Positions 15,364 through 39,166 of a stretch of 41,431 bases of DNA are shown one piece after another (position 1 is the first letter of the stretch; every line of letters starts with the position of its first letter). Origin of the DNA: a virus (taxonomy: Duplodnaviria; Caudoviricetes); the IMG/VR virus record IMGVR_UViG_3300033067_000158, positions 1-41,431 of that record; one strand, 5' to 3'. The notes below the pieces were generated by a model. It was given only the letters and a program-made list of their open reading frames with translations. It was not told where the DNA came from and made no database searches. The position numbers and the translations under genes were made by a program.

Positions 15364-15379
15364 AATATTCCTTGTTAGT

Positions 15380-15678
15380 TAAGTGTTGGTGCTTCTGTTA
15401 CGAGGTGCACCAACGAAACCCTAGCAGCGTTTAGGCTGCAATGCGGAAACTTTCGTCATTTGCATTTACTTTATTTGCTTGATTAACGGTCATCGCCTAC
15501 CGTGTTGCCGTCTCTAATATCTACCGCTGTCGAAACCATGGCATCCCCATCAAAAGTATATTGTTACTATGTCCATCTTTGGGTTCAGGTGATAAGGCTG
15601 AACAGGGAGTTCAATATACTTTTGGTGGAGATGGCGGGAGTCGAACCCGCGTCCAGCAGTCCTTCTCTTTGAAGGAAT
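15380..15678 (-). ncRNA. ssrA: two-piece (circularly permuted) tmRNA, tag ANDESFRIAA
   Basis: Acceptor piece with T arm and CATCTCC-ACCA end (15623) precedes coding piece starting GGGGATG (15548); G3:U70; tag frame 15463-15431. Confidence 0.93.
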
Positions 15679-16262
15679 TACAACAATTCTTTTAGACTAT
15701 CATTTGAAATATCAATCACCAATGAAACACGCTCACTAGTAATATTTACAACTTCATGAATAGCCGAATTCTGAAATGAATACCACTTTGATTTTTCTAA
15801 AATGTATTCACGTTTGTTAGTTAAGTTAGTTGGCAAATATGCAATGATGTCATCAGGTGTTGATGGTCCATCGTAAAAATTTGTCTTTGGTCCAGTCTCA
15901 CTCATCAAATAATATAATGTTGCTTTTCTCATATAATCAATATGAGGAGGAATGACTTCAGATCTAGCCAGTTGTACCTTAACACAATTATATGAATCTT
16001 CAATTGTTAAATTGAGTTCAGTTAAAATTTGATCTACAATTTCTTTAGGTAGTTTGAAAGTTTCATTTGCACCAAGAACTTTATCGGAATAAAAAGTCTG
16101 ATAACGTGAAATTATTTCTTCAAATTCTGGTTTACCAAATGAAACACCAGGACCTTCACCAAATCCACGTAAAGCTTTTTGCTTTTCAACATATACTTTA
16201 ATCTTATCTTCTAATTCTAGTGATAATGATGGATAGTCTAATTGTGTTGCGTCTTTAATCAT
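15678..16262 (-). CDS. 2OG-Fe(II) oxygenase-like protein
   Basis: PPHID (HxD), distal AIHEV, RVSL. Confidence 0.65.
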   Translation of the reverse strand: MIKDATQLDYPSLSLELEDKIKVYVEKQKALRGFGEGPGVSFGKPEFEEIISRYQTFYSDKVLGANETFKLPKEIVDQILTELNLTIEDSYNCVKVQLARSEVIPPHIDYMRKATLYYLMSETGPKTNFYDGPSTPDDIIAYLPTNLTNKREYILEKSKWYSFQNSAIHEVVNITSERVSLVIDISNDSLKELL

Positions 16263-20123: not shown

Positions 20124-20197
20124 TGGTGCTCTCAGTAGGTAACGCTCCTACTTCTCATCTATACCAAAGATGTGTACTGCTTCTATACTATGAGAGC
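20124..20197 (-). tRNA. tRNA-Thr(GGU), T loop AGCGUUA
   Basis: Cloverleaf, loop TTGGTAT, ACCA end. Confidence 0.85.
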
Positions 20198-20202
20198 ATT
20201 AT

Positions 20203-20278
20203 TGAATTCCACAGATGGACTCGAACCATCATCTCCATGCGCGCAAAGTCGGTGATCTACCCTTGATCTATGCAGAAA
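20203..20278 (-). pseudogene. degenerate tRNA-like element (possible UGC loop)
   Basis: Good D and T arms, broken anticodon stem, no CCA. Confidence 0.55.
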
Positions 20279-20280
20279 AC

Positions 20281-20354
20281 TGGTACCTCTTGACGGTAAC
20301 GCTCCGCCGTATCCCACTTGTAAGGAGGGTGTTCTACTTTTAAACTAAAGAGGC
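20281..20354 (-). tRNA. tRNA-Val(UAC), T loop AGCGUUA
   Basis: Loop CTTACAA, ACCA end. Confidence 0.8.
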
Positions 20355-20361
20355 ATAATCT

Positions 20362-20436
20362 TGGGGTGACTAACGGGTAACGATCCCGTGCTACAACTTT
20401 CACAGAGTTGGGTGCTTCCATTACACCATAGCCACC
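20362..20436 (-). tRNA. tRNA-His(GUG), T loop AUCGUUA
   Basis: G-1:C73, loop CTGTGAA. Confidence 0.88.
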
Positions 20437-20441
20437 ATAAT

Positions 20442-20547
20442 CATATAGCAACATACTGCCAATTATTTTAGACAATACTCAAGTCTAAACTATTTTTATC
20501 TGAAACGACTCGGAGTACGACTCCCAAGCTCAATATGTTGGTATATG
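20442..20547 (-). ncRNA. stem-closed small RNA cassette
   Basis: CATATACCAACATATTG / CAGTATGTTGCTATATG terminal stem, two inner hairpins. Confidence 0.55.
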
Positions 20548-20549
20548 CA

Positions 20550-20627
20550 AACTCATTGTAGACAGGATTCGAACCTGCATTAGACTCTTTAGCTGAGCCT
20601 TTTCTTACCATTAGAAGACTACGAGTT
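20550..20627 (-). ncRNA. tRNA-like element with AG-CUA-AA loop
   Basis: D arm, GGCTC/GAGTC anticodon stem, GCAGG-TTCGAAT-CCTGT T arm; bulged acceptor, no CCA. Confidence 0.6.
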
Positions 20628-20676
20628 CTTCGGAGTCATGACTTCCGAATATGGGCAGGTTAATTACTCCTGATTA

Positions 20677-20765
20677 CCATATAGAAACACACTAGCGCAT
20701 TGCCAAATTATGCTACTTCATTAGGGCTAGAATCGAACTAGCATTCTAATGTGTTTTTATATGGT
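20677..20765 (-). ncRNA. stem-closed cassette holding permuted tRNA elbow (T arm before D arm)
   Basis: CCATATAAAAACACATTAG / CTAGTGTGTTTCTATATGG; inside GCTAG-TTCGATT-CTAGC then TA-GCAT-AATTTGGCA-ATGC. Confidence 0.65.
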
Positions 20766-20837
20766 AGGGGCACAGAGAATCGAACTCTGATTACCTGGTT
20801 AAAAGCCAGATACTTTAGACCGTTAAGTTATACCCCC
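20762..20837 (-). tRNA. tRNA-Lys(UUU)
   Basis: Cloverleaf, loop CTTTTAA, ACCA. Confidence 0.9.
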
Positions 20838-20958
20838 GTTGATTTTCAGCTTTACGCATAGCCTTATTAGACTTACGATGCGATCCAGCTTTACGGAATA
20901 GGGCAGCTGCTACAAACTGATTGCGTTCGCGAACAACTGCCATCTGTTTTCGTTTCAT
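20815..20958 (-). CDS. small basic protein (47 aa) whose stop codon lies inside tRNA-Lys
   Basis: Hand translation MKRKQMAVVRERNQFVAAALFRKAGSHRKSNKAMRKAENQRGYNLTV; ATGA coupled to upstream ORF. Confidence 0.7.
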   Translation of the reverse strand: MKRKQMAVVRERNQFVAAALFRKAGSHRKSNKAMRKAENQRGYNLTV

Positions 20959-21185
20959 GATCTTTCTCTTTTTACTCTGCCAATACGGCTTGATTTATTC
21001 CAATCGTATGCGATACCATCTGGGCATTTGCCATCAGACACAGTATCAACACCGAATTTACCTACAACTTCAAAGTCACTACCCCTGATAGTTACAAAAT
21101 ACCCATAACCTTTAGCAAAGACCATAGCCTCATCTAAAGTTCGTGCTGAATATAATTCTTTGTTGTCTTCTAATACTTTATACAT
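20955..21185 (-). CDS. hypothetical protein
   Basis: 76 aa; EVVGKFGVDTV..GKCPDG..YDW. Confidence 0.7.
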   Translation of the reverse strand: MYKVLEDNKELYSARTLDEAMVFAKGYGYFVTIRGSDFEVVGKFGVDTVSDGKCPDGIAYDWNKSSRIGRVKRERS

Positions 21186-21213
21186 TCTTTAGAAATTCAC
21201 AGCAATTTAAATT

Positions 21214-21289
21214 TGGAGCGGGTAGCCAGTAACGATCTGGTCTACTCAAGTTTGGAAGACTCGTGTGTATCCATAAACACCTTACCCGC
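21214..21289 (-). tRNA. tRNA-Gly(UCC), T loop AUCGUUA
   Basis: GCGGGTA/TACCCGC, loop CTTCCAA, TCCA. Confidence 0.88.
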
Positions 21290-21358
21290 ATGGCCCCGTT
21301 TTTTTGTCATTTTAACTCAGGTGAACGGGAGTTCCTGAGATTAGTTGCAACCGAACTT

Positions 21359-21432
21359 TGGCATCCCGGCAGGGACTCGAACCCCGACCAACAATTTTGG
21401 AGATTGTCATGCTGCCATTACACTACCGAGAT
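21359..21432 (-). tRNA. tRNA-Trp(CCA)
   Basis: Loop CTCCAAA, GCCA. Confidence 0.9.
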
Positions 21433-21440
21433 ATATTAAG

Positions 21441-21697
21441 AGAGAAGGAATCAATTCCATTAAGCGGAAAGTCGCTGGGCAACCTGCAAGATGCAAATCA
21501 CAATAAGCAGGTCACAAAGTTTATACGTCCTAGGAGCAATAAGCAATCGACTTTCGTCTTTGGGTTATTCCTAAGAGCAACTACTATGAGTTGACCGGTT
21601 GTGCACGTTTGGGTTTTCAAGACCAAAAGTAGAATTGTTAATTCAGCTGTTGAGGCTAAATTGCGGCTTTCTCAATAACTTCCTATCATCCTTCTCA
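21441..21697 (-). ncRNA. ~255 nt multi-hairpin RNA downstream of coiled-coil gene
   Basis: GAGAAGGA/TCCTTCTC closing stem, about 7 internal hairpins, no minus-strand ORF in track. Confidence 0.5.
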
Positions 21698-21703
21698 AAA
21701 CTT

Positions 21704-22285
21704 TTACAAGATACCTTCGTCTTTCAGAAGTTCTACTTCACCTGTACTTAAGGTGATGTTTGTACCAACATTCAATGCTAGTAACTTATCCTGATGCGCT
21801 TGTTTTTCGCGCTTTAATTCTTTCATTTTAGCTTTTGCAATTGCAATCTCTGTTTCTGAGATTACGCTTGTCTCAACTGTATTGTAACGCTCGCCATAAA
21901 TCATTGAGCGATTATCAACAGTTGTATTAGCTTTCATCTTTTCGATGCGAGCTTGAATTTCAGTCAATGGCTTTGCTTCAGTAGCATTTGCCACAGTACC
22001 AACAATAGTCAACAGAGCATCAACTCGTTGAACTTCAGCCAATACATCAGAGATACCAACTTGAGCATTAGCTTTACCAACCAATGATCGGATATTGAAC
22101 AACACTGTGTTCAATGCTTCCTTACGCTTAATAGCATTAAGGAAATTGTCTTGTGCAAGTTGCAAACCTGCTGGGATGTCAGCAGTGTACTCAGTCACTG
22201 CAACAGTGGTTTCTAACTTAACTGCTGAGATTGCCTTACGGATTTCAGCTTGGATTGCGTTTGCTTTACGTAGATTTACTTGCAT
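21704..22285 (-). CDS. alpha-helical coiled-coil protein (DIP1984-like architecture, tentative)
   Basis: MQVNLRKANAIQAEI, ..GKANAQVG.., QDKLLALNVGTNITL; AAGGA SD. Confidence 0.8.
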   Translation of the reverse strand: MQVNLRKANAIQAEIRKAISAVKLETTVAVTEYTADIPAGLQLAQDNFLNAIKRKEALNTVLFNIRSLVGKANAQVGISDVLAEVQRVDALLTIVGTVANATEAKPLTEIQARIEKMKANTTVDNRSMIYGERYNTVETSVISETEIAIAKAKMKELKREKQAHQDKLLALNVGTNITLSTGEVELLKDEGIL

Positions 22286-22307
22286 TTCATATTTCCTTTA
22301 TATAGAC

Positions 22308-22336
22308 ATTATATCACAGTTTTAACTCGCTGGTGA
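22308..22336 (-). promoter_or_regulatory. promoter whose -35 overlaps the tRNA 3' end
   Basis: TCACCA gcgag...gtga TATAAT. Confidence 0.5.
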
Positions 22337-22405
22337 ACCAACTTGGAATTGAACCAAGACTCGGTGCATTATGAGTACACTGCTTTACCATTAAGCTATT
22401 GGTCC
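22331..22405 (-). tRNA. tRNA(CAU), probably Ile2
   Basis: Loop CTCATAA, ACCA; identity inferred because Met and fMet types occur elsewhere. Confidence 0.8.
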
Positions 22406-22406
22406 T

Positions 22407-22488
22407 TACATATTGAAGTACACTAGCTGCATTCCTTAGGAATCTCTATTGAAAGGGATCAACCCTCACCAATGCACTTTAATATGTA
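22407..22488 (-). ncRNA. stem-closed small RNA cassette
   Basis: TACATATTAAAGTGCATTGG / CTAGTGTACTTCAATATGTA. Confidence 0.6.
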
Positions 22489-23370
22489 GAGGGCTGAGAT
22501 TACACCCTCTGTGTTGAAGCTTCTAGCATTACCATACACCTTGCGAGCATATGTTCTCTAGACATCCACTAAATCCCTTGCGGTAATTTAGTACTTCAAC
22601 AGTATCGCCGTTTTGAAAGTCAGGCACTAGACTTGTCGTTGAATACTACTCTACACAACTCTTTACATTTACCTTGCGGGCAATTCACAGTCGCTAAACC
22701 ATTACGAAATTCATTGTACAAACTAACTTCACCTTGCGAGCTTAGTTAGACTCAATTGACTTTAACATCTTGAGTGTTAGATACCTTTCGCATTCAACCG
22801 GAGCAGTCTTTGCATTTTTGTTAAAGATAGGATTTGAACCTATAGCTTTCTGTTTAAAAGACAGACGATCTACCATTGATCTACTTTGAACCTACTATGA
22901 TGTGCTGCTCCTGTTGTTTCATACTCTTTTGGAATACAAAATACAACACACCATGTACCTTTTGCCTTGCGAGCTACTCAGTCGTATTTCACGATCGATG
23001 TCGGGGTCTCGGCTTTCGCGTACCCGCCATTAACCATTAATACTGCATCATACCCCTTAGCTGCAAAACTTCGGAATATAACACTACACTTTCTCATACC
23101 AATTGACAAGTTGGTTAGTTGTGAGCCACAGCACCACCTGTTAGTCTCTATCCACTTAGGTTCCTCTCGTCTTTCAACTCAAGCCTTTAAGCGAACATTC
23201 TTTCCACAACACTTGCTTCATTGTTATCTCCACCAGTCTTATTAGTGAAGAGACCCTCACGAGTCTGAGCATGCTTGTATAGGTGGACTATTACTAGCGC
23301 TGGTATGTAGGCATTCCAGCTTTGGGCATATCGCTATGCTTATCCTTTATCGATACTATACTACCGATTA
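22486..23370 (-). ncRNA. large structured ncRNA, GOLLD-like
   Basis: ~880 nt with no minus-strand ORF in track, own promoter, at least 5 C-GCAA-G capped hairpins, 3' hairpin AGAGGG-TGTAATCTCAG-CCCTCT, tRNA-array context. Confidence 0.7.
22820..22891 (-). tRNA. tRNA-Lys(UUU)-like domain embedded in the large ncRNA
   Basis: GATC-AATGGTA-GATC, TCTGT-CTTTTAA-ACAGA, ATAGG-TTCAAAT-CCTAT; bulged acceptor, no CCA. Confidence 0.7.
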
Positions 23371-23377
23371 TACTTCT

Positions 23378-23406
23378 ATTATAACACAACGAATGCTCGT
23401 TGTACA
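23378..23406 (-). promoter_or_regulatory. promoter of the large ncRNA
   Basis: TGTACA acgag...TATAAT. Confidence 0.75.
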
Positions 23407-23414
23407 CAATTATT

Positions 23415-23489
23415 TGGTGCGCCGTGATGGAATCGAACCACCATCTCTAAGTTCGTAGCCTAGGATATTCTCCATTATACTAACAGCGC
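23415..23489 (-). tRNA. tRNA-Arg(ACG)
   Basis: Loop CTACGAA, ACCA. Confidence 0.9.
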
Positions 23490-23542
23490 ATGGTGAGCTC
23501 AAGGACTTATGTCTACGTTAGTAGACGCCTTGTGCCCATAAG

Positions 23543-23618
23543 TGGTGCCGCCATCTGGTTACGCTCCAGACTCTATGGATTTTCAGTCCATCGCTTTCAC
23601 TAGATTAGCTTTAGCGGC
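23543..23618 (-). tRNA. tRNA-Phe(GAA), T loop AGCGUAA
   Basis: Loop CTGAAAA, ACCA. Confidence 0.85.
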
Positions 23619-23626
23619 ATAAAATT

Positions 23627-23710
23627 TGGTGGGCAAAGAGAGACTCGAACTCTCAATCCTTTCGGCGCTGGCTTCTAAGACCAGAGTGTATACCATTCCA
23701 CCACTTGCCC
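23627..23710 (-). tRNA. tRNA-Leu(UAG)
   Basis: Loop CTTAGAA, variable arm, ACCA. Confidence 0.9.
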
Positions 23711-23826
23711 AAATTAACATACTACTTATCTCATTATACTCCGCATGTTAGGGAGAGGCTTCTTACAATAGGCATCTAATGCTCGGCTTTCGCGGAACTC
23801 ATTAAACGTTATTCCTATCGTATTAT

Positions 23827-23902
23827 TGGTGCGGGCTACAGGGTTCGAACCTGCGACCTGTTCGTTGGCAACGAACTGCTCTACCAGCTGAGCTAAGCAC
23901 GC
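23827..23902 (-). tRNA. tRNA-Gly(GCC)
   Basis: Loop TTGCCAA; discriminator A rather than the usual U. Confidence 0.85.
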
Positions 23903-23903
23903 A

Positions 23904-24089
23904 TTATTCTTTTTCTTCCATTCGAGCTTTTGTTTCTGCAGCAAGACGTGCAAAGTACTCAGATTTCTCTTTTTCTTTTTTCTTACGTTCTTCAGAATGA
24001 TTAAAGATACGATCAACACCTTCAGCAAATGCTTGTGTACTTGCTTTAGTTTGTATTGAATCACCTGTAATATCGTTCTTAGCTACCAT
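23904..24089 (-). CDS. small hypothetical protein in tRNA array
   Basis: MVAKNDITGDSIQTK..DRIF; GGAG SD. Confidence 0.7.
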   Translation of the reverse strand: MVAKNDITGDSIQTKASTQAFAEGVDRIFNHSEERKKKEKEKSEYFARLAAETKARMEEKE

Positions 24090-24107
24090 CAAAACTCCAC
24101 AATGAAT

Positions 24108-24184
24108 TGGTCTCGGTACAAGGATTCGAACCTTGGACCCCCTCGTCCCAAACGAGGTGCGCTACCGGACTGCGCTACACCGAG
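24108..24184 (-). tRNA. tRNA-Pro(UGG)
   Basis: Loop TTTGGGA, ACCA. Confidence 0.92.
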
Positions 24185-24190
24185 ATTGAT

Positions 24191-24266
24191 TGGTGCCCCA
24201 GTCCGGAATCGAACCGACTTCTCCTGCTTACAAGACAGGACCTCATCCATTAAAGGTTTCAGGGGC
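24191..24266 (-). tRNA. tRNA-Thr(UGU)
   Basis: Loop CTTGTAA, ACCA; one acceptor mismatch. Confidence 0.8.
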
Positions 24267-24279
24267 ATAAATTATATAT

Positions 24280-24354
24280 TGGTGGTGATAGTTGGACTTG
24301 AACCAACAACCTATTCCGTATGAAGGAAGTGCACTGCCATTGTGCTATATCACC
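24280..24354 (-). tRNA. tRNA-Met(CAU)
   Basis: Loop TTCATAC, ACCA. Confidence 0.85.
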
Positions 24355-24359
24355 ATTGA

Positions 24360-24488
24360 CCATTTTAGAATCACACTCAATACATTCGTTAATGCTGGCA
24401 CAAAAACTTTTCGCTCCCTGCCAGGGGAACCGATAATCTAACCGCACACCTTGGCGGCAAACTACCGTTGAGAATGATTTTAAAATGG
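24360..24488 (-). ncRNA. stem-closed cassette with potential pseudoknot
   Basis: CCATTTTAAAATCATTCTCAA / TTGAGTGTGATTCTAAAATGG; loop CTGGCA complementary to downstream TGCCAG. Confidence 0.6.
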
Positions 24489-24571
24489 TGGATGTGACTT
24501 GAGTCGAACAAGTAGTGCCATAAGGCGGCGGATTTACAGTCCACTGGGGTTACCAATTTTCCTACACATCC
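24486..24571 (-). tRNA. tRNA-Tyr(GUA)
   Basis: Loop CTGTAAA, variable arm, ACCA. Confidence 0.88.
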
Positions 24572-24585
24572 ATTTTAAAATTTAA

Positions 24586-24796
24586 TTTGTAAGTTGTTTC
24601 ACCACGTTATTGAAACCATTCACCCATCAGTTATGTGCACAGGGAGGTCGGTACGTTACTTGAGATTCATCCAGTTGATACGCCATCGTGTATACTGATC
24701 TTCCGATCAGTCGGGGATCGAACCCGCTACCTTCTACTAACTCGGTCCTTCGAAGAAACCTTATTAGCGTGACTTCACTTGCTAACACTTACAAAA
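24586..24796 (-). ncRNA. ~210 nt structured RNA of unknown family
   Basis: TTTGTAAGT/ACTTACAAA closing stem, UUCG hairpin, T-loop-like GGG-TTCGATC-CCC, ACTGATC-GGAA-GATCAGT. Confidence 0.6.
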
Positions 24797-24798
24797 CT

Positions 24799-24892
24799 TG
24801 GCGGAAAGCAGAGGAGTCGAACCCCATCCGATTTTAGTCAGAACCTGGTTTTCAAGGCCAGTCGCAGGACCATCCCCGCTGCATTACTTTCC
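24799..24892 (-). tRNA. tRNA-Ser(UGA) with enlarged D arm
   Basis: Loop CTTGAAA, long variable arm, GCCA. Confidence 0.8.
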
Positions 24893-24899
24893 ATTATAG

Positions 24900-25049
24900 G
24901 TTTTTGAGAGACCAACTATCTTTCTTAAGGACTCATTGGCTTGTCTCGATTGAAGGAGTTTATCAACCTTGTGTTGCTACTGGCGTGTCAGTCTCAAGAA
25001 TCAGGGACCTAGCGCACAAGGGACTCAACTTCATCGTCTATCTCAAAAT
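24900..25049 (-). ncRNA. ~150 nt structured RNA of unknown family
   Basis: TTTTGAGA/TCTCAAAA closing stem; long inner rod GAAG..GAGT..CCTTGTG / CACAAGG..ACTC..CTTC. Confidence 0.5.
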
Positions 25050-25050
25050 C

Positions 25051-25125
25051 TGGTGCATCGTCTTGGACTCGAACCAAGTTCACTCTGCTTAAGAGGCAGG
25101 GCTTCACCATCAAAGTTTACAATGC
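25051..25125 (-). tRNA. tRNA-Lys(CUU)
   Basis: Loop CTCTTAA, ACCA. Confidence 0.85.
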
Positions 25126-25211
25126 ATAAATTAGTGTAAGTTCCTACTACCACCCATCGTTACTTACAACCGTTGAGTTACCATGCATCAAAACAAGGTA
25201 ACTATTTGCTC

Positions 25212-25289
25212 TGGCTCCGTACCTAGGGATCGAACCTAGCTCATTCTTGATTAACAGTCAAGCGCATACACCATGCTTGCTCGTACGGA
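25212..25289 (-). tRNA. tRNA-Asn(GUU)
   Basis: TCC start, loop CTGTTAA, GCCA. Confidence 0.88.
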
Positions 25290-25299
25290 ATAAAAAGAT

Positions 25300-25381
25300 T
25301 TGTAGTCGAGGACTCGAACCTCTCAAGTTGCGATCTTGACCGGATTAACCAGCTCCCGTTCCTGTCGGGTTTTACTACAAA
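25300..25381 (-). ncRNA. type II tRNA-like RNA with 5-nt anticodon loop
   Basis: TTGTAGT/ACTACAA, CCCG/CGGG, GCTGG-TTAAT-CCGGT, variable arm, GAGG-TTCGAGT-CCTC; no CCA. Confidence 0.55.
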
Positions 25382-25383
25382 AT

Positions 25384-25457
25384 TGGATGCGGGTGACAGA
25401 TTCGAACTGCCGATGCTCCGAGCTTATGAGACTGGAGTGGTGACCACCCTACCCGCT
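25384..25457 (-). tRNA. initiator-like tRNA-Met(CAU) with short D arm
   Basis: 1:72 mismatch, GCGGG acceptor, loop CTCATAA, TCCA. Confidence 0.7.
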
Positions 25458-25463
25458 ATAAAT

Positions 25464-25538
25464 TGGTACTGAGTACGGGAATCGAACCCGTCTTTGCGAC
25501 TTGAAAGGCCACCGTCCTAACCGATAGACGAACCCAGT
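25464..25538 (-). tRNA. tRNA-Glu(UUC)
   Basis: Loop CTTTCAA, ACCA. Confidence 0.9.
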
Positions 25539-25543
25539 ATGTT

Positions 25544-25618
25544 TGGCGACTCTGCGGGGAATCGAACCCCGATATCCAGCTAGACAGGCCGGTATAATAA
25601 CCACTATATGACAGAGCC
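25544..25618 (-). tRNA. tRNA-Asp(GUC)
   Basis: Loop CTGTCTA (U37), GCCA. Confidence 0.88.
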
Positions 25619-25742
25619 ATTAATTGAATCCTCTACACTATATGCCTACATTCAACACGCTTTACTGCAGGCTTACGGTTTATTGTGTAGGTTACATAAC
25701 GTATGATCAAACCTCTGAGCTTGCAGAGAATTCAATTAATGG
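25617..25742 (-). ncRNA. stem-closed small RNA cassette
   Basis: CCATTAATTGAATTCTCTGCA / TGTAGAGGATTCAATTAATGG 21-bp stem. Confidence 0.6.
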
Positions 25743-25813
25743 TACTTCCACAAGGTAACGCTCCTTGGTCTATCGATTATCAGTCGATTGCTCTACTATT
25801 AAGCTATGGAAGT
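25740..25813 (-). tRNA. tRNA-Ile(GAU), T loop AGCGUUA
   Basis: Loop CTGATAA, ACCA. Confidence 0.85.
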
Positions 25814-25817
25814 ATAT

Positions 25818-25892
25818 TGGTACTCGATAAGAGAATTGAACTCTTCTTGCCTGGTTGAAAACCAGATGTCCTGACCACTAGACGAATCGAGT
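25818..25892 (-). tRNA. tRNA-Glu(UUC), second copy
   Basis: Loop TTTTCAA, ACCA. Confidence 0.88.
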
Positions 25893-26029
25893 ATAAGTGT
25901 ATGAAAGCCCCATGATATATCCCAACGCTATTCATACATGATCGTTCTTAAAAACAATCCCCTATGTTTAGAACCTTATGCTTCCGACTTTACGTAAAGA
26001 CTTAGAAAGGATTTTTAGATTATGGATTT

Positions 26030-26058
26030 ATTATACCACATAATTTAATCGTTGTAAA
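26030..26058 (-). promoter_or_regulatory. promoter, T4-early-like GTTTACA -35
   Basis: TTTACA-17nt-TATAAT. Confidence 0.75.
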
Positions 26059-26088
26059 CAACTATTTTGCTTTTCTTACAAAATTTAT

Positions 26089-26174
26089 TGGTGCGAGTGG
26101 AGGGACTTGAACCCTCAATCCCTTACGGGCGACAGATTTTAAGTCTGTAGTGTATACCATTCCACCACACTCGC
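26089..26174 (-). tRNA. tRNA-Leu(UAA)
   Basis: Loop CTTAAAA, variable arm, ACCA. Confidence 0.92.
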
Positions 26175-26184
26175 ATTAATTATC

Positions 26185-26221
26185 TTACTTCTATTATACC
26201 ACAAGTTTGACTCGTTGTACA
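26185..26221 (-). repeat. 37-bp promoter copy identical to 27051-27087
   Basis: TTACTTCTATTATACCACAAGTTTGACTCGTTGTACA at both sites. Confidence 0.85.
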
Positions 26222-26231
26222 ACAGTTTTTA

Positions 26232-26309
26232 TGGAATCTGGAGTGAGATTTGAACTCACGGTTTTACGGATTTGCAATCCGTTGCAATGGGCCGCTCTGC
26301 CATCCAGAC
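26232..26309 (-). tRNA. tRNA-Cys(GCA)
   Basis: Loop TTGCAAA, TCCA. Confidence 0.88.
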
Positions 26310-26313
26310 ATAT

Positions 26314-26365
26314 TGTATCATATATGATTCATTAAGCAGGTTAGTGTATCATATATGATTCATTA
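26314..26365. repeat. two direct 21-bp repeats with palindromic core
   Basis: TGTATCATATATGATTCATTA at 26314 and 26345. Confidence 0.85.
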
Positions 26366-26368
26366 TTT

Positions 26369-26442
26369 TGGTCACCGCGGGCAGAGTCGAACTGCCGCTT
26401 CCTGTATCCAAGACAGGGATGCTACCGTAACATCTCGCGGAG
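26369..26442 (-). tRNA. tRNA-Pro(UGG), second divergent copy
   Basis: Loop CTTGGAT (A37), ACCA. Confidence 0.8.
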
Positions 26443-26451
26443 ATTAAATTT

Positions 26452-26526
26452 TGGTGGACCGTAAGAGACTCGAACTCTTATTCCCGACGTGCAAGGCCAG
26501 TGTAATTCCCCCTATACTAACAGCCC
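26452..26526 (-). tRNA. tRNA-Ala(UGC)
   Basis: G3:U70, loop CTTGCAC, ACCA. Confidence 0.9.
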
Positions 26527-26534
26527 AAAATTTT

Positions 26535-26624
26535 TGGTGGTGAGTGTGGGATTCGAACCCACGTGCCGTTTCCAACACACTCCTTAGCAGGGAGGTACGA
26601 TTAACCAGACTCTGTCAACTCACC
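26535..26624 (-). tRNA. tRNA-Ser(GCU)
   Basis: Loop CTGCTAA, variable arm, ACCA. Confidence 0.88.
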
Positions 26625-26709
26625 ATATTAGAGAACACTAACGTCTATCGTCATGCTCGGAATAAATTCCTGTCAGCTTCGTGATGCGTACTAATGTACT
26701 CTAATATAG
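26623..26709 (-). ncRNA. stem-closed small RNA cassette
   Basis: CTATATTAGAGTACATTAG / TTAGTGTTCTCTAATATGG. Confidence 0.6.
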
Positions 26710-26711
26710 TC

Positions 26712-26776
26712 ACCATATTGAAGTACACTAAACATTCCCGCCCCTATACGACATGAATAATGTACTTCAATATGGT
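26712..26776 (-). ncRNA. stem-closed small RNA cassette
   Basis: ACCATATTGAAGTACATTA / TAGTGTACTTCAATATGGT. Confidence 0.6.
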
Positions 26777-26862
26777 GGAAGCTGTGGGATTCGAACCCAC
26801 GGACCCCGTTAAGGATCGCTAGTTTTCAAGACTAGTGCGTTAAACCGCTCTGCCAAGCTTCC
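26773..26862 (-). tRNA. tRNA-Ser(UGA)
   Basis: Loop CTTGAAA, variable arm, ACCA. Confidence 0.92.
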
Positions 26863-26874
26863 AAATTGCTATGA

Positions 26875-26890
26875 ATTTTTAAAGAACGTT
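26875..26890 (-). promoter_or_regulatory. boxA-like Nus antitermination site
   Basis: CGTTCTTTAAAAA ~20 nt downstream of the promoter at 26913-26941. Confidence 0.55.
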
Positions 26891-26912
26891 TGGATTTTTA
26901 ATCCATGTAGTT

Positions 26913-26941
26913 ATTATACCACACTTTAAGCCCGTAGATAC
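26913..26941 (-). promoter_or_regulatory. promoter variant (cggg spacer, extended -10)
   Basis: cgggcttaaagtgtgg TATAAT, weak -35. Confidence 0.6.
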
Positions 26942-26961
26942 GAAAACTTAAAAATAAATTT

Positions 26962-27038
26962 TGGCGGGGGTAACTGGATTCGAACCAGTGATGACGATTT
27001 CAAAGACCGTTGCCTTAGGCCAACTAGGCGATACCCCT
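26962..27038 (-). tRNA. tRNA-Gln(UUG)
   Basis: Loop CTTTGAA, 1:72 mismatch, GCCA. Confidence 0.9.
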
Positions 27039-27058: not shown

Positions 27059-27087
27059 ATTATACCACAAGTTTGACTCGTTGTACA
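27059..27087 (-). promoter_or_regulatory. phage early-type promoter at head of tRNA array
   Basis: TGTACA acgag...gtgg TATAAT. Confidence 0.75.
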
Positions 27088-27152: not shown

Positions 27153-27181
27153 ATTATACCATAGTTTGATCCCGTTGTAAA
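27153..27181 (-). promoter_or_regulatory. promoter, GTTTACA -35
   Basis: TTTACA acggg...tgg TATAAT. Confidence 0.75.
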
Positions 27182-27237
27182 CAGGTAGTTGACTAAATTA
27201 GTAAACTATAGAAACTGAATACTTTAGTTCTATAACG

Positions 27238-27267
27238 AAAAAACCCTGACTTTTTAGGGTCAGGGTT
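27238..27267 (-). terminator. intrinsic terminator (candidate attenuator)
   Basis: AACCCTGAC-cctaaaaa-GTCAGGGTT TTTT. Confidence 0.85.
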
Positions 27268-27292
27268 CTTGAAGTTTGTTTAGTGAGATGCT

Positions 27293-27433
27293 TTAAGCGT
27301 ATCCACTACCTTCTTGTAACCCTGAACTTTTACCGCAATCATTAATATTGTGCGCATAAAATCCTGCCCATGATGATTCACTTTGACGTGTCATCGGCGT
27401 AACTTTAACGAGCTGTAAGGATAATTTTTTCAT
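27293..27433 (-). CDS. 46-aa leader peptide containing all 20 amino acids (not in ORF track)
   Basis: MKKLSLQLVKVTPMTRQSESSWAGFYAHNINDCGKSSGLQEGSGYA; carries TCAGGGTT complementary to the terminator 5' arm. Confidence 0.75.
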   Translation of the reverse strand: MKKLSLQLVKVTPMTRQSESSWAGFYAHNINDCGKSSGLQEGSGYA

Positions 27434-27487
27434 ATAGTTTATATATACGTTTAGTGTTCTCTATGTGAACTTTTTTTAAAATATTTT

Positions 27488-27619
27488 TTAATCCATTAAG
27501 ATGTAGTCTTCTTTACATACACCGCAATCTGGACACAAATAATCATCTGGCATTGCATTGAATTCTTCCTCAGTCAATGTGTGGCCACAAACAATACAAA
27601 CATAAACACGATCTGACAT
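27488..27619 (-). CDS. rubredoxin (43 aa, not in ORF track)
   Basis: YVCIVCGH...PDDYLCPDCGVCKEDY; TAATG coupled to rubrerythrin. Confidence 0.9.
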   Translation of the reverse strand: MSDRVYVCIVCGHTLTEEEFNAMPDDYLCPDCGVCKEDYILMD

Positions 27620-28068
27620 TACATTGCCTCCCAAACTTGTTGATACGCTTCAGCATGTCGCTTCTCAACTTTTGCTAATGCCGCAAATCGTTTCTCTGCT
27701 AGTGCTAACACCTTTTTAAACTCTTCAGCGTGATACTCAGATTCAGCAATCTGATGTGCTGCTTCTCGTTCTGCTTCTTGGTTACCCTCAGCAATCGCTT
27801 CAGCTTTCATCTTAGGATACATTTGGGTGTACTCGTGAGTCTCGCCTTCAATAGCCATTTCAATTGCATGCTTGGTTGATGGTTTACCGATCAACAATTC
27901 TAAGTGACCCCATGCATGTAATAATTCTTGATCTGCGGTATGTTCAAAGTGTTTTGCAACATCTTCAAAACCTTCAGCACGAGCTAGCTTTGCAAAGTAG
28001 CGATACTTGACATGAGCCATAGACTCACCTGCTAAAGCAGCTTCAAGATTTTTGATTGTTACTGACAT
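27619..28068 (-). CDS. rubrerythrin (ferritin-like di-iron)
   Basis: NLEAALAGESMA..Y.YFA, ELLHA, GETHEYTQMYP, EYH, VEKRHAEAY. Confidence 0.92.
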   Translation of the reverse strand: MSVTIKNLEAALAGESMAHVKYRYFAKLARAEGFEDVAKHFEHTADQELLHAWGHLELLIGKPSTKHAIEMAIEGETHEYTQMYPKMKAEAIAEGNQEAEREAAHQIAESEYHAEEFKKVLALAEKRFAALAKVEKRHAEAYQQVWEAM

Positions 28069-28174: not shown

Positions 28175-28250
28175 TGGCGCGGCTAGAGAGATTCGAACTC
28201 CCATCGGACGGTGTAGAAGACCGTTGCCTTATCCATTAGACCATAGCCGC
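28175..28250 (-). tRNA. tRNA-Arg(UCU)
   Basis: Loop CTTCTAC, GCCA; outside the main array. Confidence 0.9.
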
Positions 28251-36726: not shown

Positions 36727-38166
36727 TTATTTGCGAGCGTTTGCTCGTACCTCGTCAAAGGTGTATTCTTTGCTTAGGTTACCATTCCAATAGACAGGAA
36801 CCAAAGCTTCTGTCCATCCACCGATACCTTTGTCTGACCAACCGGTTGGAGCAGTTACACCAGAGGCAAATTCACCACCAGAGTTAGTCCACAACTTGAC
36901 ACGACCAGCTTTAGACTTTTTACCACTATCAGTGATAGGATCTTTCTGTACATCAAACCAAGTTTCTACGTATCGTGTACCTTGATCACCATCTACAACA
37001 AGTTTAGTAGTACTCATTGCTGAACACTTCATTGCGAATCGTTGTGTATCACGGTCCACAATTTGAAGCAGAGCGCCGCCCATACCAAATGCAATGTTAT
37101 CAGCACTCCATCCCATTGCCATGAAGGCTCCGAGAATGCTACGAACAGTAAGTTCATTAATACCGTCACCTTGAATAAGACGAACATTGTTGAGTACTCG
37201 GAAACCTTTAGCGTTTGTAGTGTATCCAAACTTCTCTCCTAAGATTTGCACGAGTTTGACGTTAACTTCCACAGGATCACCAGAGTCGGGACGGATAACC
37301 ACTGTTGCACCAGAGGCGATAACCTCGTCCTTGAGTTCTTCACCCCAGAGTTTGCTTGCTGCGTTGAAGATGTCATATGAGTCGCTCACTACTGCCAAGA
37401 TAGAACCTTCACGGCCGAACTGCTTAAGCATATTACGGTATGCTTCTACTTCCTTCTCACGACCCCAACTGGTGACTGTGCTGTGCTCCATTGCAGGAAT
37501 TGAGAATCCTGCAACACCAGCGTTATAGTACTCAGAAGCGAAAAGCAAGCCAGAAATAGTATCAGTGCCCATAAAGTTGACCAAGTGGGCTGCGCCACCA
37601 ATTGCGGCAGACTCAAGAGAGCTAACACCACGAGCACCAAAGTCGTGTAACTTAAAATCGATACCAGCAGGGTCACCAGTCTTCTCCAAATAATCAGCAA
37701 TCACTTTCTTAATAGTCCATGATTGAGTTGCTACGGTTGTAGGATACCATACAGCTCGAAGCAATGCAGTCTCCAAATATGTTGTCAACCAGAAACACTT
37801 AGGGTCAGTGTTCTCAACAGTTACCAACACGTTGCTTACAGGAACCACCGTACCTTCTGGGACTGCTCGGATGACCAGAGGCAAGAAACCTTGGTGTGCA
37901 TCGAGGATGTATTGCCAACCTTCGCGGTTGAATGGTTCACCGTGGGTTTCAAGGATTGATGCTGCAACGTCAATGTCTCGTTGTGTGATAGGCTCCAATA
38001 AGTATTCTTTGATGAACGCTTGGAGACCGAAGAAGAGAGTTTGATCATACTTACCACCACGAGATTCAATATAAGAATAGACACCAGTAGTGCCGACTGG
38101 GTATTGTTTAAACATGCTAACTTTGTAGCTGTCGGTGTTCAACAAGAGGTTTTTAGCGAGTTTCAT
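36727..38166 (-). CDS. nadV: nicotinamide phosphoribosyltransferase
   Basis: TDSYK, LHDFGARG, SIPAMEHS, VVSDSYD, IRPDSGDP, IQGDG, FGMGGALLQ, KDPITD.GKKS. Confidence 0.95.
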   Translation of the reverse strand: MKLAKNLLLNTDSYKVSMFKQYPVGTTGVYSYIESRGGKYDQTLFFGLQAFIKEYLLEPITQRDIDVAASILETHGEPFNREGWQYILDAHQGFLPLVIRAVPEGTVVPVSNVLVTVENTDPKCFWLTTYLETALLRAVWYPTTVATQSWTIKKVIADYLEKTGDPAGIDFKLHDFGARGVSSLESAAIGGAAHLVNFMGTDTISGLLFASEYYNAGVAGFSIPAMEHSTVTSWGREKEVEAYRNMLKQFGREGSILAVVSDSYDIFNAASKLWGEELKDEVIASGATVVIRPDSGDPVEVNVKLVQILGEKFGYTTNAKGFRVLNNVRLIQGDGINELTVRSILGAFMAMGWSADNIAFGMGGALLQIVDRDTQRFAMKCSAMSTTKLVVDGDQGTRYVETWFDVQKDPITDSGKKSKAGRVKLWTNSGGEFASGVTAPTGWSDKGIGGWTEALVPVYWNGNLSKEYTFDEVRANARK

Positions 38167-38176
38167 AGTAAGCTCC

Positions 38177-39166
38177 TTACTTTAAAGTTACGAATGCAGG
38201 CATTGGCATAACACCTGTGATTTTTGAGATGATAGCTTTGTGATCGTCATATAGATCATAGCTATTCAATGCGTCGGTGAGTGGAACCCATTTGCATTCG
38301 GCTGCATCATCTGCGCCATTTGCTCGTGGTAGACTTCCATCTGGGTCAGGATTGACACGCATGTAGACCGCCAGAGTATTTCGTGGAATACCAAATGATC
38401 GACTAGGATCATCAAACAATTCTGTCTTTACGATAGAACCACGAAGAACTTTTTCAGGAACTCGAACATTAGTTTCTTCCATCAATTCACGGATAGCACA
38501 ATCAAGGAATGTTTCACGTTGATTGCGGAACCCGCCAGGAAGTGCCCATGTACCCATTCCTGGTGCAAACTTACGTTTGATCAAGAGGATGTGACCTTGA
38601 CATTCAAGGATAGCATCACCACAGTTGAAGTTCAATGTTTCAGGGAATGGGTAATTCTTAAACAATTCTTTTTCTTTGTTATAGAATACTCGATCCGCAC
38701 GAACAGTCATTGGCATATCTGAACAATCGTCTTCAAACATCTTAGCACGAATTGCTGTAGCATTGATGTTGTATTGTGATTCAATGTTCTTGAACTTCCA
38801 ATCAGGGAACCACTTGAGATAGTTGTTACCTTCTTTCATGTGTCCAAACAATGTTGGAACTTCATCAGTGAAGTGTTCAATGCTTGCTCGTACATCAGAC
38901 ATCCACTGAGTATCACTATATTGATAATCGTTCAAAGGAACAATCTCATAATTGAAGATACGTTGAGCATGCAACTTAGCCATCAACATAGCTTTACGCT
39001 CTTGGAACGTCCATGGATTCTTAATACTGCGACATTGATTTGCTGATCCCACAAAGATGTAGAGCTGAGCTACTTGGGATGCTGCGATTCCTAACGCATG
39101 TACATGTCCTTGGTGGACTGGTTGGAATCGACCGATGAAGATACCGGCTTTGATTTTCTCTGACAT
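38177..39166 (-). CDS. bifunctional NMN adenylyltransferase / Nudix hydrolase (NadM-Nudix, NatV-like)
   Basis: IGRFQPVHQGH, NPWT..ER, ALPGGF...RELMEET, ADDA. Confidence 0.93.
   Translation of the reverse strand: MSEKIKAGIFIGRFQPVHQGHVHALGIAASQVAQLYIFVGSANQCRSIKNPWTFQERKAMLMAKLHAQRIFNYEIVPLNDYQYSDTQWMSDVRASIEHFTDEVPTLFGHMKEGNNYLKWFPDWKFKNIESQYNINATAIRAKMFEDDCSDMPMTVRADRVFYNKEKELFKNYPFPETLNFNCGDAILECQGHILLIKRKFAPGMGTWALPGGFRNQRETFLDCAIRELMEETNVRVPEKVLRGSIVKTELFDDPSRSFGIPRNTLAVYMRVNPDPDGSLPRANGADDAAECKWVPLTDALNSYDLYDDHKAIISKITGVMPMPAFVTLK

Follow-up and report, generated by a model that had tools for sequence, protein, structure and literature searches.

Attenuators in general depend on the order in which their RNA folds. 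Those of amino-acid operons include trpL, hisL, pheL and thrL, as well as pheM, which precedes pheST. Their plan, as set out in the available text of one study, consists of a leader ORF, a competing antiterminator and intrinsic terminator, and a short distance between the stop codon and the terminator (PMC1183508), and the phage locus described here follows it. The trp, his, phe and thr attenuators depend on codon runs for one to three amino acids and precede biosynthetic or synthetase genes, whereas the phage leader has no such runs, represents almost every amino acid by one or two codons and would gate non-coding genes, those of a tRNA array. It is also relevant that modelling in the available part of the same study found the sensitivity of an attenuator to drop when its regulatory codons are few (PMC1183508).

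In M. smegmatis, the whiB7 uORF contains 19 amino acids, and a single Trp codon confers the response to Trp (PMC10274678, available text). Similarly to the phage leader, and as far as the available text of that report extends, this uORF combines a near-complete amino-acid content with a variable sequence, stalling favours its antiterminator and a single codon suffices; it differs in that whiB7 controls a transcription factor and that the uORF is alanine-enriched across species (PMC10274678). In the phage, by contrast, the leader drives a tRNA array, amino-acid coverage is conserved and codon content follows the array. Alanine accounts for 3 of the 46 residues of the leader studied here, and tRNA genes, and no whiB7, lie downstream. 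The best reading of this analogy is that the phage leader would work like the mycobacterial whiB7 attenuator without being a member of the whiB7 family.

Studies of PARIS and of retrons are also said to deal with phage tRNAs as counter-defence. Phage tRNAs have been proposed to offset the loss of the host's tRNAs during infection, which gives the leader and its array their likely purpose, namely the replacement of depleted host tRNAs; the available main text of that report describes no attenuator, leader, promoter or sensing of tRNA loss (PMC10264068). The trn operon of Anabaena PCC 7120 is likewise a long tRNA array induced by translational stress, with the difference that it lies on a bacterial megaplasmid and is controlled by the DNA-binding repressor TrcR, the available text of the two reports describing no leader peptide (PMC8421152, PMC10272220). 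A search of the full-text literature, from which most subscription papers and bioRxiv supplements fell outside, returned no description of a leader-peptide attenuator on tRNA genes. Compared with known attenuators, the new aspects are the input, which is nearly all codons, and the output, which is tRNA genes.

Leader, terminator and tRNA array in the window

The window, the whole stretch of 41,431 nts that was analysed, is a 41-kb virus record (Duplodnaviria; Caudoviricetes) that encodes a T4-type gp32, the best cultured matches of which are in cyano- and pelagiphages (54-57% identity). The sequencing runs containing it are mostly freshwater or riverine. A permuted tmRNA of betaproteobacterial type was identified with Rfam (15379-15729, minus strand; tag ANDESFRIAA), and its type suggests, rather than demonstrates, a betaproteobacterial host. 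An NAD salvage pair, made of a NAMPT-like gene and a NadM-NUDIX-like gene, was also observed (36727-39166, minus strand). The features of the array head and of the array are the following:

28175..28250, minus strand: tRNA-Arg(UCU), not part of the array and placed upstream of the leader (ARAGORN)
27488..28068, minus strand: rubrerythrin and rubredoxin genes, directly upstream of the leader, giving context and an unbiased anchor for fetching relatives
27440..27447, minus strand: candidate promoter TATATATA, 6 nts before the ATG, agreeing at 7 of 8 positions with the T4 late consensus TATAAATA
27293..27433, minus strand: leader ORF, 46 codons, no SD, all 20 amino acids in codons 8-33
27335..27433, minus strand: predicted sensing zone, codons 1-33, where a stalled A site would leave the antiterminator free (mask model)
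27310..27325, minus strand: antiterminator 5′ strand, TCAGGGTT (27325-27318) then GAAG (27313-27310), codons 37-42
27259..27274, minus strand: shared strand, CTTC (27274-27271) then AACCCTGAC, the 3′ side of the antiterminator and the 5′ arm of the terminator
27238..27267, minus strand: intrinsic terminator with a 9-bp stem and a loop of 8 nts, then a T run
27153..27181, minus strand: bypass promoter 1, strong sigma70-type, past the terminator, TTTACA-17-TATAAT with TG, 11/12
27059..27087, minus strand: bypass promoter 2, TGTACA-17-TATAAT with TG, 10/12
20124..27038, minus strand: tRNA array of about 31 genes that together serve all 20 amino acids, containing GOLLD RNA and internal promoters
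22491..22954, minus strand: GOLLD RNA, inside the array

A preliminary description of this DNA had claimed a 46-codon minus-strand ORF in which codons 8-33 hold all 20 amino acids and in which W, C, H, F, P, R, I and D each occur once, and a recount agrees on coordinates, residues and single copies. These 26 codons are the shortest stretch of the leader with all 20 amino acids, the last new one falling at codon 33. The chance check that it had proposed was run on the phage's own genes, where all 20 amino acids were found in 0 of 7074 windows of 26 residues (from 40 ORFs on the minus strand, each 100 aa or longer) and in 37 of 6274 windows of 46 residues. Simulated 46-mers hold all 20 kinds in 2.4% of cases and pack them into 26 residues in 0.012-0.020%. 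The leader ORF has no match in Pfam, and a protein search with its peptide returned one 90% cluster of 6 near-identical members and no distant homologues. The exact protein is present on 16 contigs and annotated as a gene in several sources, the differences of the 51-aa variants in its cluster preserve the frame, and the single leader change in DNA runs is synonymous (position 27335, in the Cys codon). Contigs assembled from RNA runs, which do not show strand, ends or level, overlap the leader region (27228-27403 and 27377-27574), while a metagenome scan returned 0 close relatives.

TCAGGGTT had been described as a copy of the 3′ arm of the terminator, able to pair with the 5′ arm and extended by GAAG/CTTC, and all of these elements are found at the places given for them. 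The terminator 5′ arm begins at 27267, 25 nts past the leader stop, and the 3′ arm (27250-27242) is followed by TTTT. Folding gives −16.9 kcal/mol for the terminator (z −5.4) and −20.5 kcal/mol for the antiterminator hairpin (z −2.2); the antiterminator is the base of this long hairpin, whose tip carries the leader stop codon. Positions 27225-27490 match no Rfam family, including T-box, at the gathering threshold.

The array had been said to cover all 20 amino acids, which is true once two tRNAs from Rfam are added to the 29 tRNAs for 18 amino acids that ARAGORN calls over 20124-27038; the anticodons of the added genes were read as Phe(GAA) (23546-23618) and Val(UAC) (20284-20354). It is equally true that the leader has no AGA/AGG codon and that tRNA-Arg(UCU) stands outside the array. 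Several peculiarities of the array were observed alongside. A long tRNA-like sequence at about 24799-24892 (minus strand), not called by ARAGORN or, at the gathering threshold, by Rfam, has by eye a selenocysteine-tRNA-like body and a Ser(UGA) anticodon, and the tRNA at 20206-20277 (minus strand) has a 4-base anticodon call (tgcg) and an enlarged anticodon loop. Long inverted repeats, also noted by eye, surround short inserts between tRNA genes (26641-26748, 20690-20760 and 22440-22500, minus strand; examples lie around 26760-26710 and 26707-26625) and are possibly processing stems for small RNAs.

The T4 late consensus sits at −13 to −6 according to the available text of PMC1524935, and this position would place +1 within 1 nt of the ATG in the window, making the transcript leaderless. 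Exact copies of TATAAATA occur at four places on the minus strand of the window. Before the leader, a TTCACA..TATATA promoter without an SD had been proposed; in L031, which encodes an identical leader peptide, TTCACA is absent and the 19 nts before the ATG, including TATATATA, are kept, so that the −35 part of the proposal is not supported. The window leader indeed has no SD, nor any sigma70 promoter at 9/12 or better before it. As for the three promoters claimed downstream of the terminator, two are strong, and the element ending at 26913, located after tRNA-Gln, is an extended −10 only and was not called by the promoter scan. In the window, promoters thus bypass the terminator, and since they are strong the element cannot be the sole gate of the array. 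Hypothetically, a late leaderless leader transcript could be combined here with early bypass promoters, which would resolve the bypass paradox. Within the array, a 37-nt promoter cassette occurs in two exact copies (27087-27051 and 26221-26185, minus strand), and related TGTACA/TTTACA..TATAAT promoters are also seen at 27181, 26058, 23406 and 28796.

Array heads of related phages

Relatives were fetched via the neighbouring rubrerythrin (80 loci), via the tail of the leader peptide (22 loci) and by RNA pattern alone (at least 119, at least 121 and at least 120 stretches). For the array-head count, 39 non-redundant heads were retained from 91, and the ORF was selected from its position and start signals without regard to content; the rule chose the wrong ORF for the window and for L031, and this miss was left in the count. 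An ORF precedes the terminator in 32 of the 39 heads, so that the arrangement of a short ORF upstream of an intrinsic terminator is present in the window and in most of the heads compared. At least 19 amino-acid kinds are found in 22 of these 32 ORFs (2.1 or 1.5 expected) and all 20 kinds in 12 (0.3 or 0.4 expected). Among the matches listed for unique viral loci picked by RNA pattern, a leader with 19-20 kinds was found at 54 of 64 array loci versus 1 of 50 loci that are free of tRNAs over at least 2.5 kb.

At 55% identity, the leader peptides group into 35 families that have no sequence in common; in the counts by family given here, related families are taken as units, uncorrected for their tree. 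There is exactly one W in 32 of 36 leaders and exactly one H in 30 of 36, and within one family Cys is retained in 20 of 21 members yet shifts between columns. The pN/pS of the leaders is 0.44 (32 disjoint pairs). Single-copy residues change at a rate of 5.6% versus 13.7% for repeated ones, a low rate that may come in part from W and C being conserved in any protein. Multiples of three make up 20 of 39 leader indels, a count that is uninformative because open frames were preselected. Judged from these sequences, the conserved trait of the leaders is amino-acid coverage and not protein sequence. This corresponds to what had been proposed for relatives, since near-complete coverage persists as the peptide diverges and the unit is conserved at array heads.

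The covariation of antiterminator and terminator that had been looked for in relatives was found across families, and the pairing is cognate-specific. The antiterminator duplex averages −19.4 kcal/mol with a leader's own arm versus −14.8 with a swapped arm in 15 leaders that were not structure-selected, and −19.5 versus −15.0 kcal/mol in 21 structure-selected leaders (0/20000 permutations in each set); before this comparison, two classes of ORF were removed by hand, the 3′ ends of an upstream gene and one chance ORF. At positions left free by the search, the antiterminator forms Watson-Crick pairs in 30 (16.3 expected), 26 (12.4) and 20 (9.9) of 35 families, and pairing is below chance at two of the five free positions, on the distal side. 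In the terminator stem, one free position is Watson-Crick paired in 35 of 35 families, and all four types of pair occur there. The gap from stop to terminator is 23-37 nts in 36 leaders, 12-45 being allowed by the rule. A mutually exclusive antiterminator overlapping the 3′ part of the ORF is maintained by this covariation, and the comparison of relatives indicates that the leader element before the tRNA array is a real, conserved cis-element.

A sigma70-like promoter lies upstream in 27 of 35 families. Promoters 6-10 nts from the ATG were counted in 19 of 35, a count that is partly circular, as starts of this kind are preferred by the rule used. A promoter of at least 10/12 stands between terminator and first tRNA in 14 of 35 families including the window (1.9 expected) and is absent from the other 21, and internal promoters occur in 22 of 25 longer arrays. 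The arrangement of these promoters makes it likely that the element acts as a front gate in some phages, where it appears as such, and as a booster in others. In one clade (L007, L016, L020, L032 and L070), the terminator is followed, ahead of the first tRNA, by a conserved ORF of 50-58 aa and by a conserved non-coding stretch that appears structured.

Outside this group, a blastn search for cultured carriers returned tRNA matches only, the rubrerythrin gave 7 weak matches, and no such leader was found at the array heads of S-CREM1, S-PM2, S-CRM01, S-CBWM1 and KVP40 (5 of 5 examined, 9 regions). In bacterial genomes, 121 loci carry the same RNA pattern, none with a downstream tRNA or a short all-20 leader. 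Among 301 genomes of one class, centred on an alphaproteobacterial MAG, 23 of 25 pattern matches were examined and no leader was found, the other 2, from the unpublished G288, being excluded. At two loci, L240 (identical to L344; 1389-1582) and L356, a bacterial rtcB, encoding an RNA ligase, was observed downstream of a promoter, a leader and a terminator; these leaders have 44-63 codons, 17-18 amino acids and an antiterminator-like GAGGGTTT. A cellular origin at rtcB was considered and is not the rule, since 65 rtcB loci hold 2 clear leaders and 1 doubtful one, with 17-18 kinds.

Modelled switch and codon content

Folding of the nascent RNA of the window under a ribosome mask, as suggested in the preliminary description, gives a switch point at codon 33/34, which coincides with the last new amino acid. 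In this model, the terminator 5′ arm is held at 0.94-0.99 with the A site at codons 2-33, at 0.51 at codon 34, at 0.13-0.31 at codons 35-40 and at 0.51-0.60 at codons 41-44, and it is able to pair again at codons 45-47. Hence the claim that a ribosome at the stop codon masks the antiterminator is not literally right; such a ribosome lies about 30 nts past TCAGGGTT, and folding predicts that it breaks the upper stem instead. With the ribosome at the stop, the arm falls below 0.2 in only 11 of 36 leaders in the nascent-RNA model, and at equilibrium the terminator wins (1.0 in the window, above 0.5 in 35 of 36 leaders). With a mid-leader ribosome, the terminator is still favoured at full-length equilibrium in 20 of 36 leaders, and antitermination must therefore depend on the order of folding, that is, be kinetic. 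In the nascent-RNA model without any ribosome, the arm exceeds 0.5 in 34 of 36 leaders.

The proposal that the leader senses all 20 amino acids holds only in approximation. Across leaders, the sensing zones contain 630 amino-acid kinds versus 608 for shuffled order (p=0.0006), and the usual number within the geometric zone is 17-19, all 20 being reached in only 4 of 36 leaders; in this analysis the antiterminator core was miscalled for L006, L009 and L020. D, E and V often fall past the zone.

The absence of AGA/AGG from a leader with tRNA-Arg(UCU) outside the array, pointed out for the window, extends across families. The sensing zone has AGA/AGG in 14 of 20 leaders if tRNA-Arg(UCU) belongs to the array, in 0 of 9 if the gene lies upstream and in 1 of 3 for which this tRNA was not seen; by family majority, the counts are 9 of 12 inside versus 0 of 7 upstream (p=0.003). 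AGR use in the phages' own genes is similar in the two groups (0.32 in inside-array and 0.26 in upstream families), and one leader family shows both states (L380, L392). When the presence of a tRNA was tested in 24 full arrays, 1 of 10 tests was significant, that of AUA against tRNA-Ile(UAU) (11/13 versus 3/11, p=0.011 uncorrected), and Arg(UCU) gave p=0.155.

Codon choice is also biased in frame. Asp, Asn, His, Tyr and Phe codons end in U in 167 of 189 cases (115 expected), compared with about 50% in other frames, GAG/CAG account for 57 of 94 (27 expected), and leader codons are rarer than those of the phages' own genes in 31 of 32 cases. U-ending four-fold codons are scarce (55 of 433, versus 22-27% in other frames), which is partly compositional. 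GNN and UNN anticodons predominate in the arrays, and the favoured codons are the ones that these read by wobble; their use may raise the sensitivity of the leader. Variant leaders, L104/L134, L208, L211 and L444 (before tRNA-Asn), were observed as well, which have the same terminator design and only 14-15 amino acids. They are rich in Asn, Thr, Ile and Met, with 65-73% ANN codons versus 34% in pan leaders, and the arrays behind them begin with tRNAs for Asn, Ile, Arg(UCU) and Thr; these variants possibly sense t6A-dependent decoding or amino acids of the aspartate family.

Proposed mechanism, rival explanations and significance

Leader, antiterminator and terminator probably form a ribosome-coupled attenuator in which a stall at a sampled codon would lead to read-through into the tRNA genes. 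The transcript from which the ORF is translated would be leaderless. With the A site at codons 2-33, a ribosome is predicted to leave the antiterminator free, one at codons 34-44 would mostly block it, and one at the stop would open the upper stem so that the terminator wins. Read-through would add to the output of the downstream sigma70 promoters, in the window possibly late in infection, and the new tRNAs would relieve the stall and close a feedback loop. Because there is one codon per amino acid, and few regulatory codons entail a low sensitivity, the strongest response would be expected to deep tRNA loss, be it by cleavage, by loss of modification or by severe uncharging, or to a general slowing, and not to mild starvation. 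Anticodon nucleases, the example given in the preliminary description, could be a trigger. Of the attenuator as first proposed, the unit, its coverage, the covariation and the AGA/AGG link are thus retained, whereas masking at the stop, an all-20 zone and the role of sole gate are not. More tentatively, the leader could be an isoacceptor-level checklist matched to the array, which probes decoding in the host with the hardest wobble codon for every tRNA that the phage supplies and drops a codon together with its departed tRNA; it would provide protein-free feedback that senses any defence that destroys tRNAs and responds with replacements, in this phage maybe late and from a T4-late-type promoter.

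An attenuator could also gauge general ribosome speed or initiation, as affected by antibiotics, host shut-off or ribosome scarcity, the variety of codons averaging speed with no array-matched checklist. The preference for rare and wobble codons, the non-significance of most per-tRNA presence tests and the antitermination predicted for an untranslated leader (arm above 0.5 in 34 of 36) would fit this explanation, as would the response of whiB7 to many translation insults (PMC10274678, available text). It is nevertheless rather unlikely, given that AGA/AGG follows the position of tRNA-Arg(UCU), that Asn/Thr/Ile-rich variant leaders stand before arrays whose first tRNAs are those for Asn, Ile, Arg(UCU) and Thr, and that a single W (32/36) and a single H (30/36) are unneeded for averaging. 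Control of the antiterminator by a phage protein, by binding of uncharged tRNA or by RNA polymerase modification, with translation secondary, is very improbable. Although folding predicts that naked nascent RNA already forms the antiterminator and T4-type phages switch promoter classes (PMC1524935, available text), the composition and codon signals are in frame, and no Rfam family, T-box included, is matched at the gathering threshold.

Departing further from attenuation, the ORF might be the gene of a small functional protein, with an ordinary terminator behind it, the array relying on its own promoters and the complementarity being incidental. A pN/pS of 0.44, the annotation of the protein as a gene in several sources and the strong downstream promoters are in keeping with this explanation; the families nonetheless keep 19-20 residue kinds with no sequence in common, pairing is cognate-specific, the element is tied to tRNA arrays, and there is no Pfam match and one 90% homologue cluster only, which makes it highly doubtful. 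That the leader is a chance ORF in an intergenic region is hardly credible: any simulated 46-mer holds all 20 residues in 2.4% of cases, but the comparative counts refute it (54/64 versus 1/50 among the matches listed, and 22 observed versus about 2 expected).

The ribosome-coupled attenuator touches on an old open question, why phages carry full tRNA sets and whether these are deployed on demand. A sensor at the array head makes the current view, a compensation for depleted host tRNAs, testable with a 200-nt reporter, and the codons of each leader would predict which tRNAs the phage monitors. If true, this would be an attenuator whose product is the molecule sensed, and it would provide a compact, portable reporter for tRNA cleavage or modification loss.
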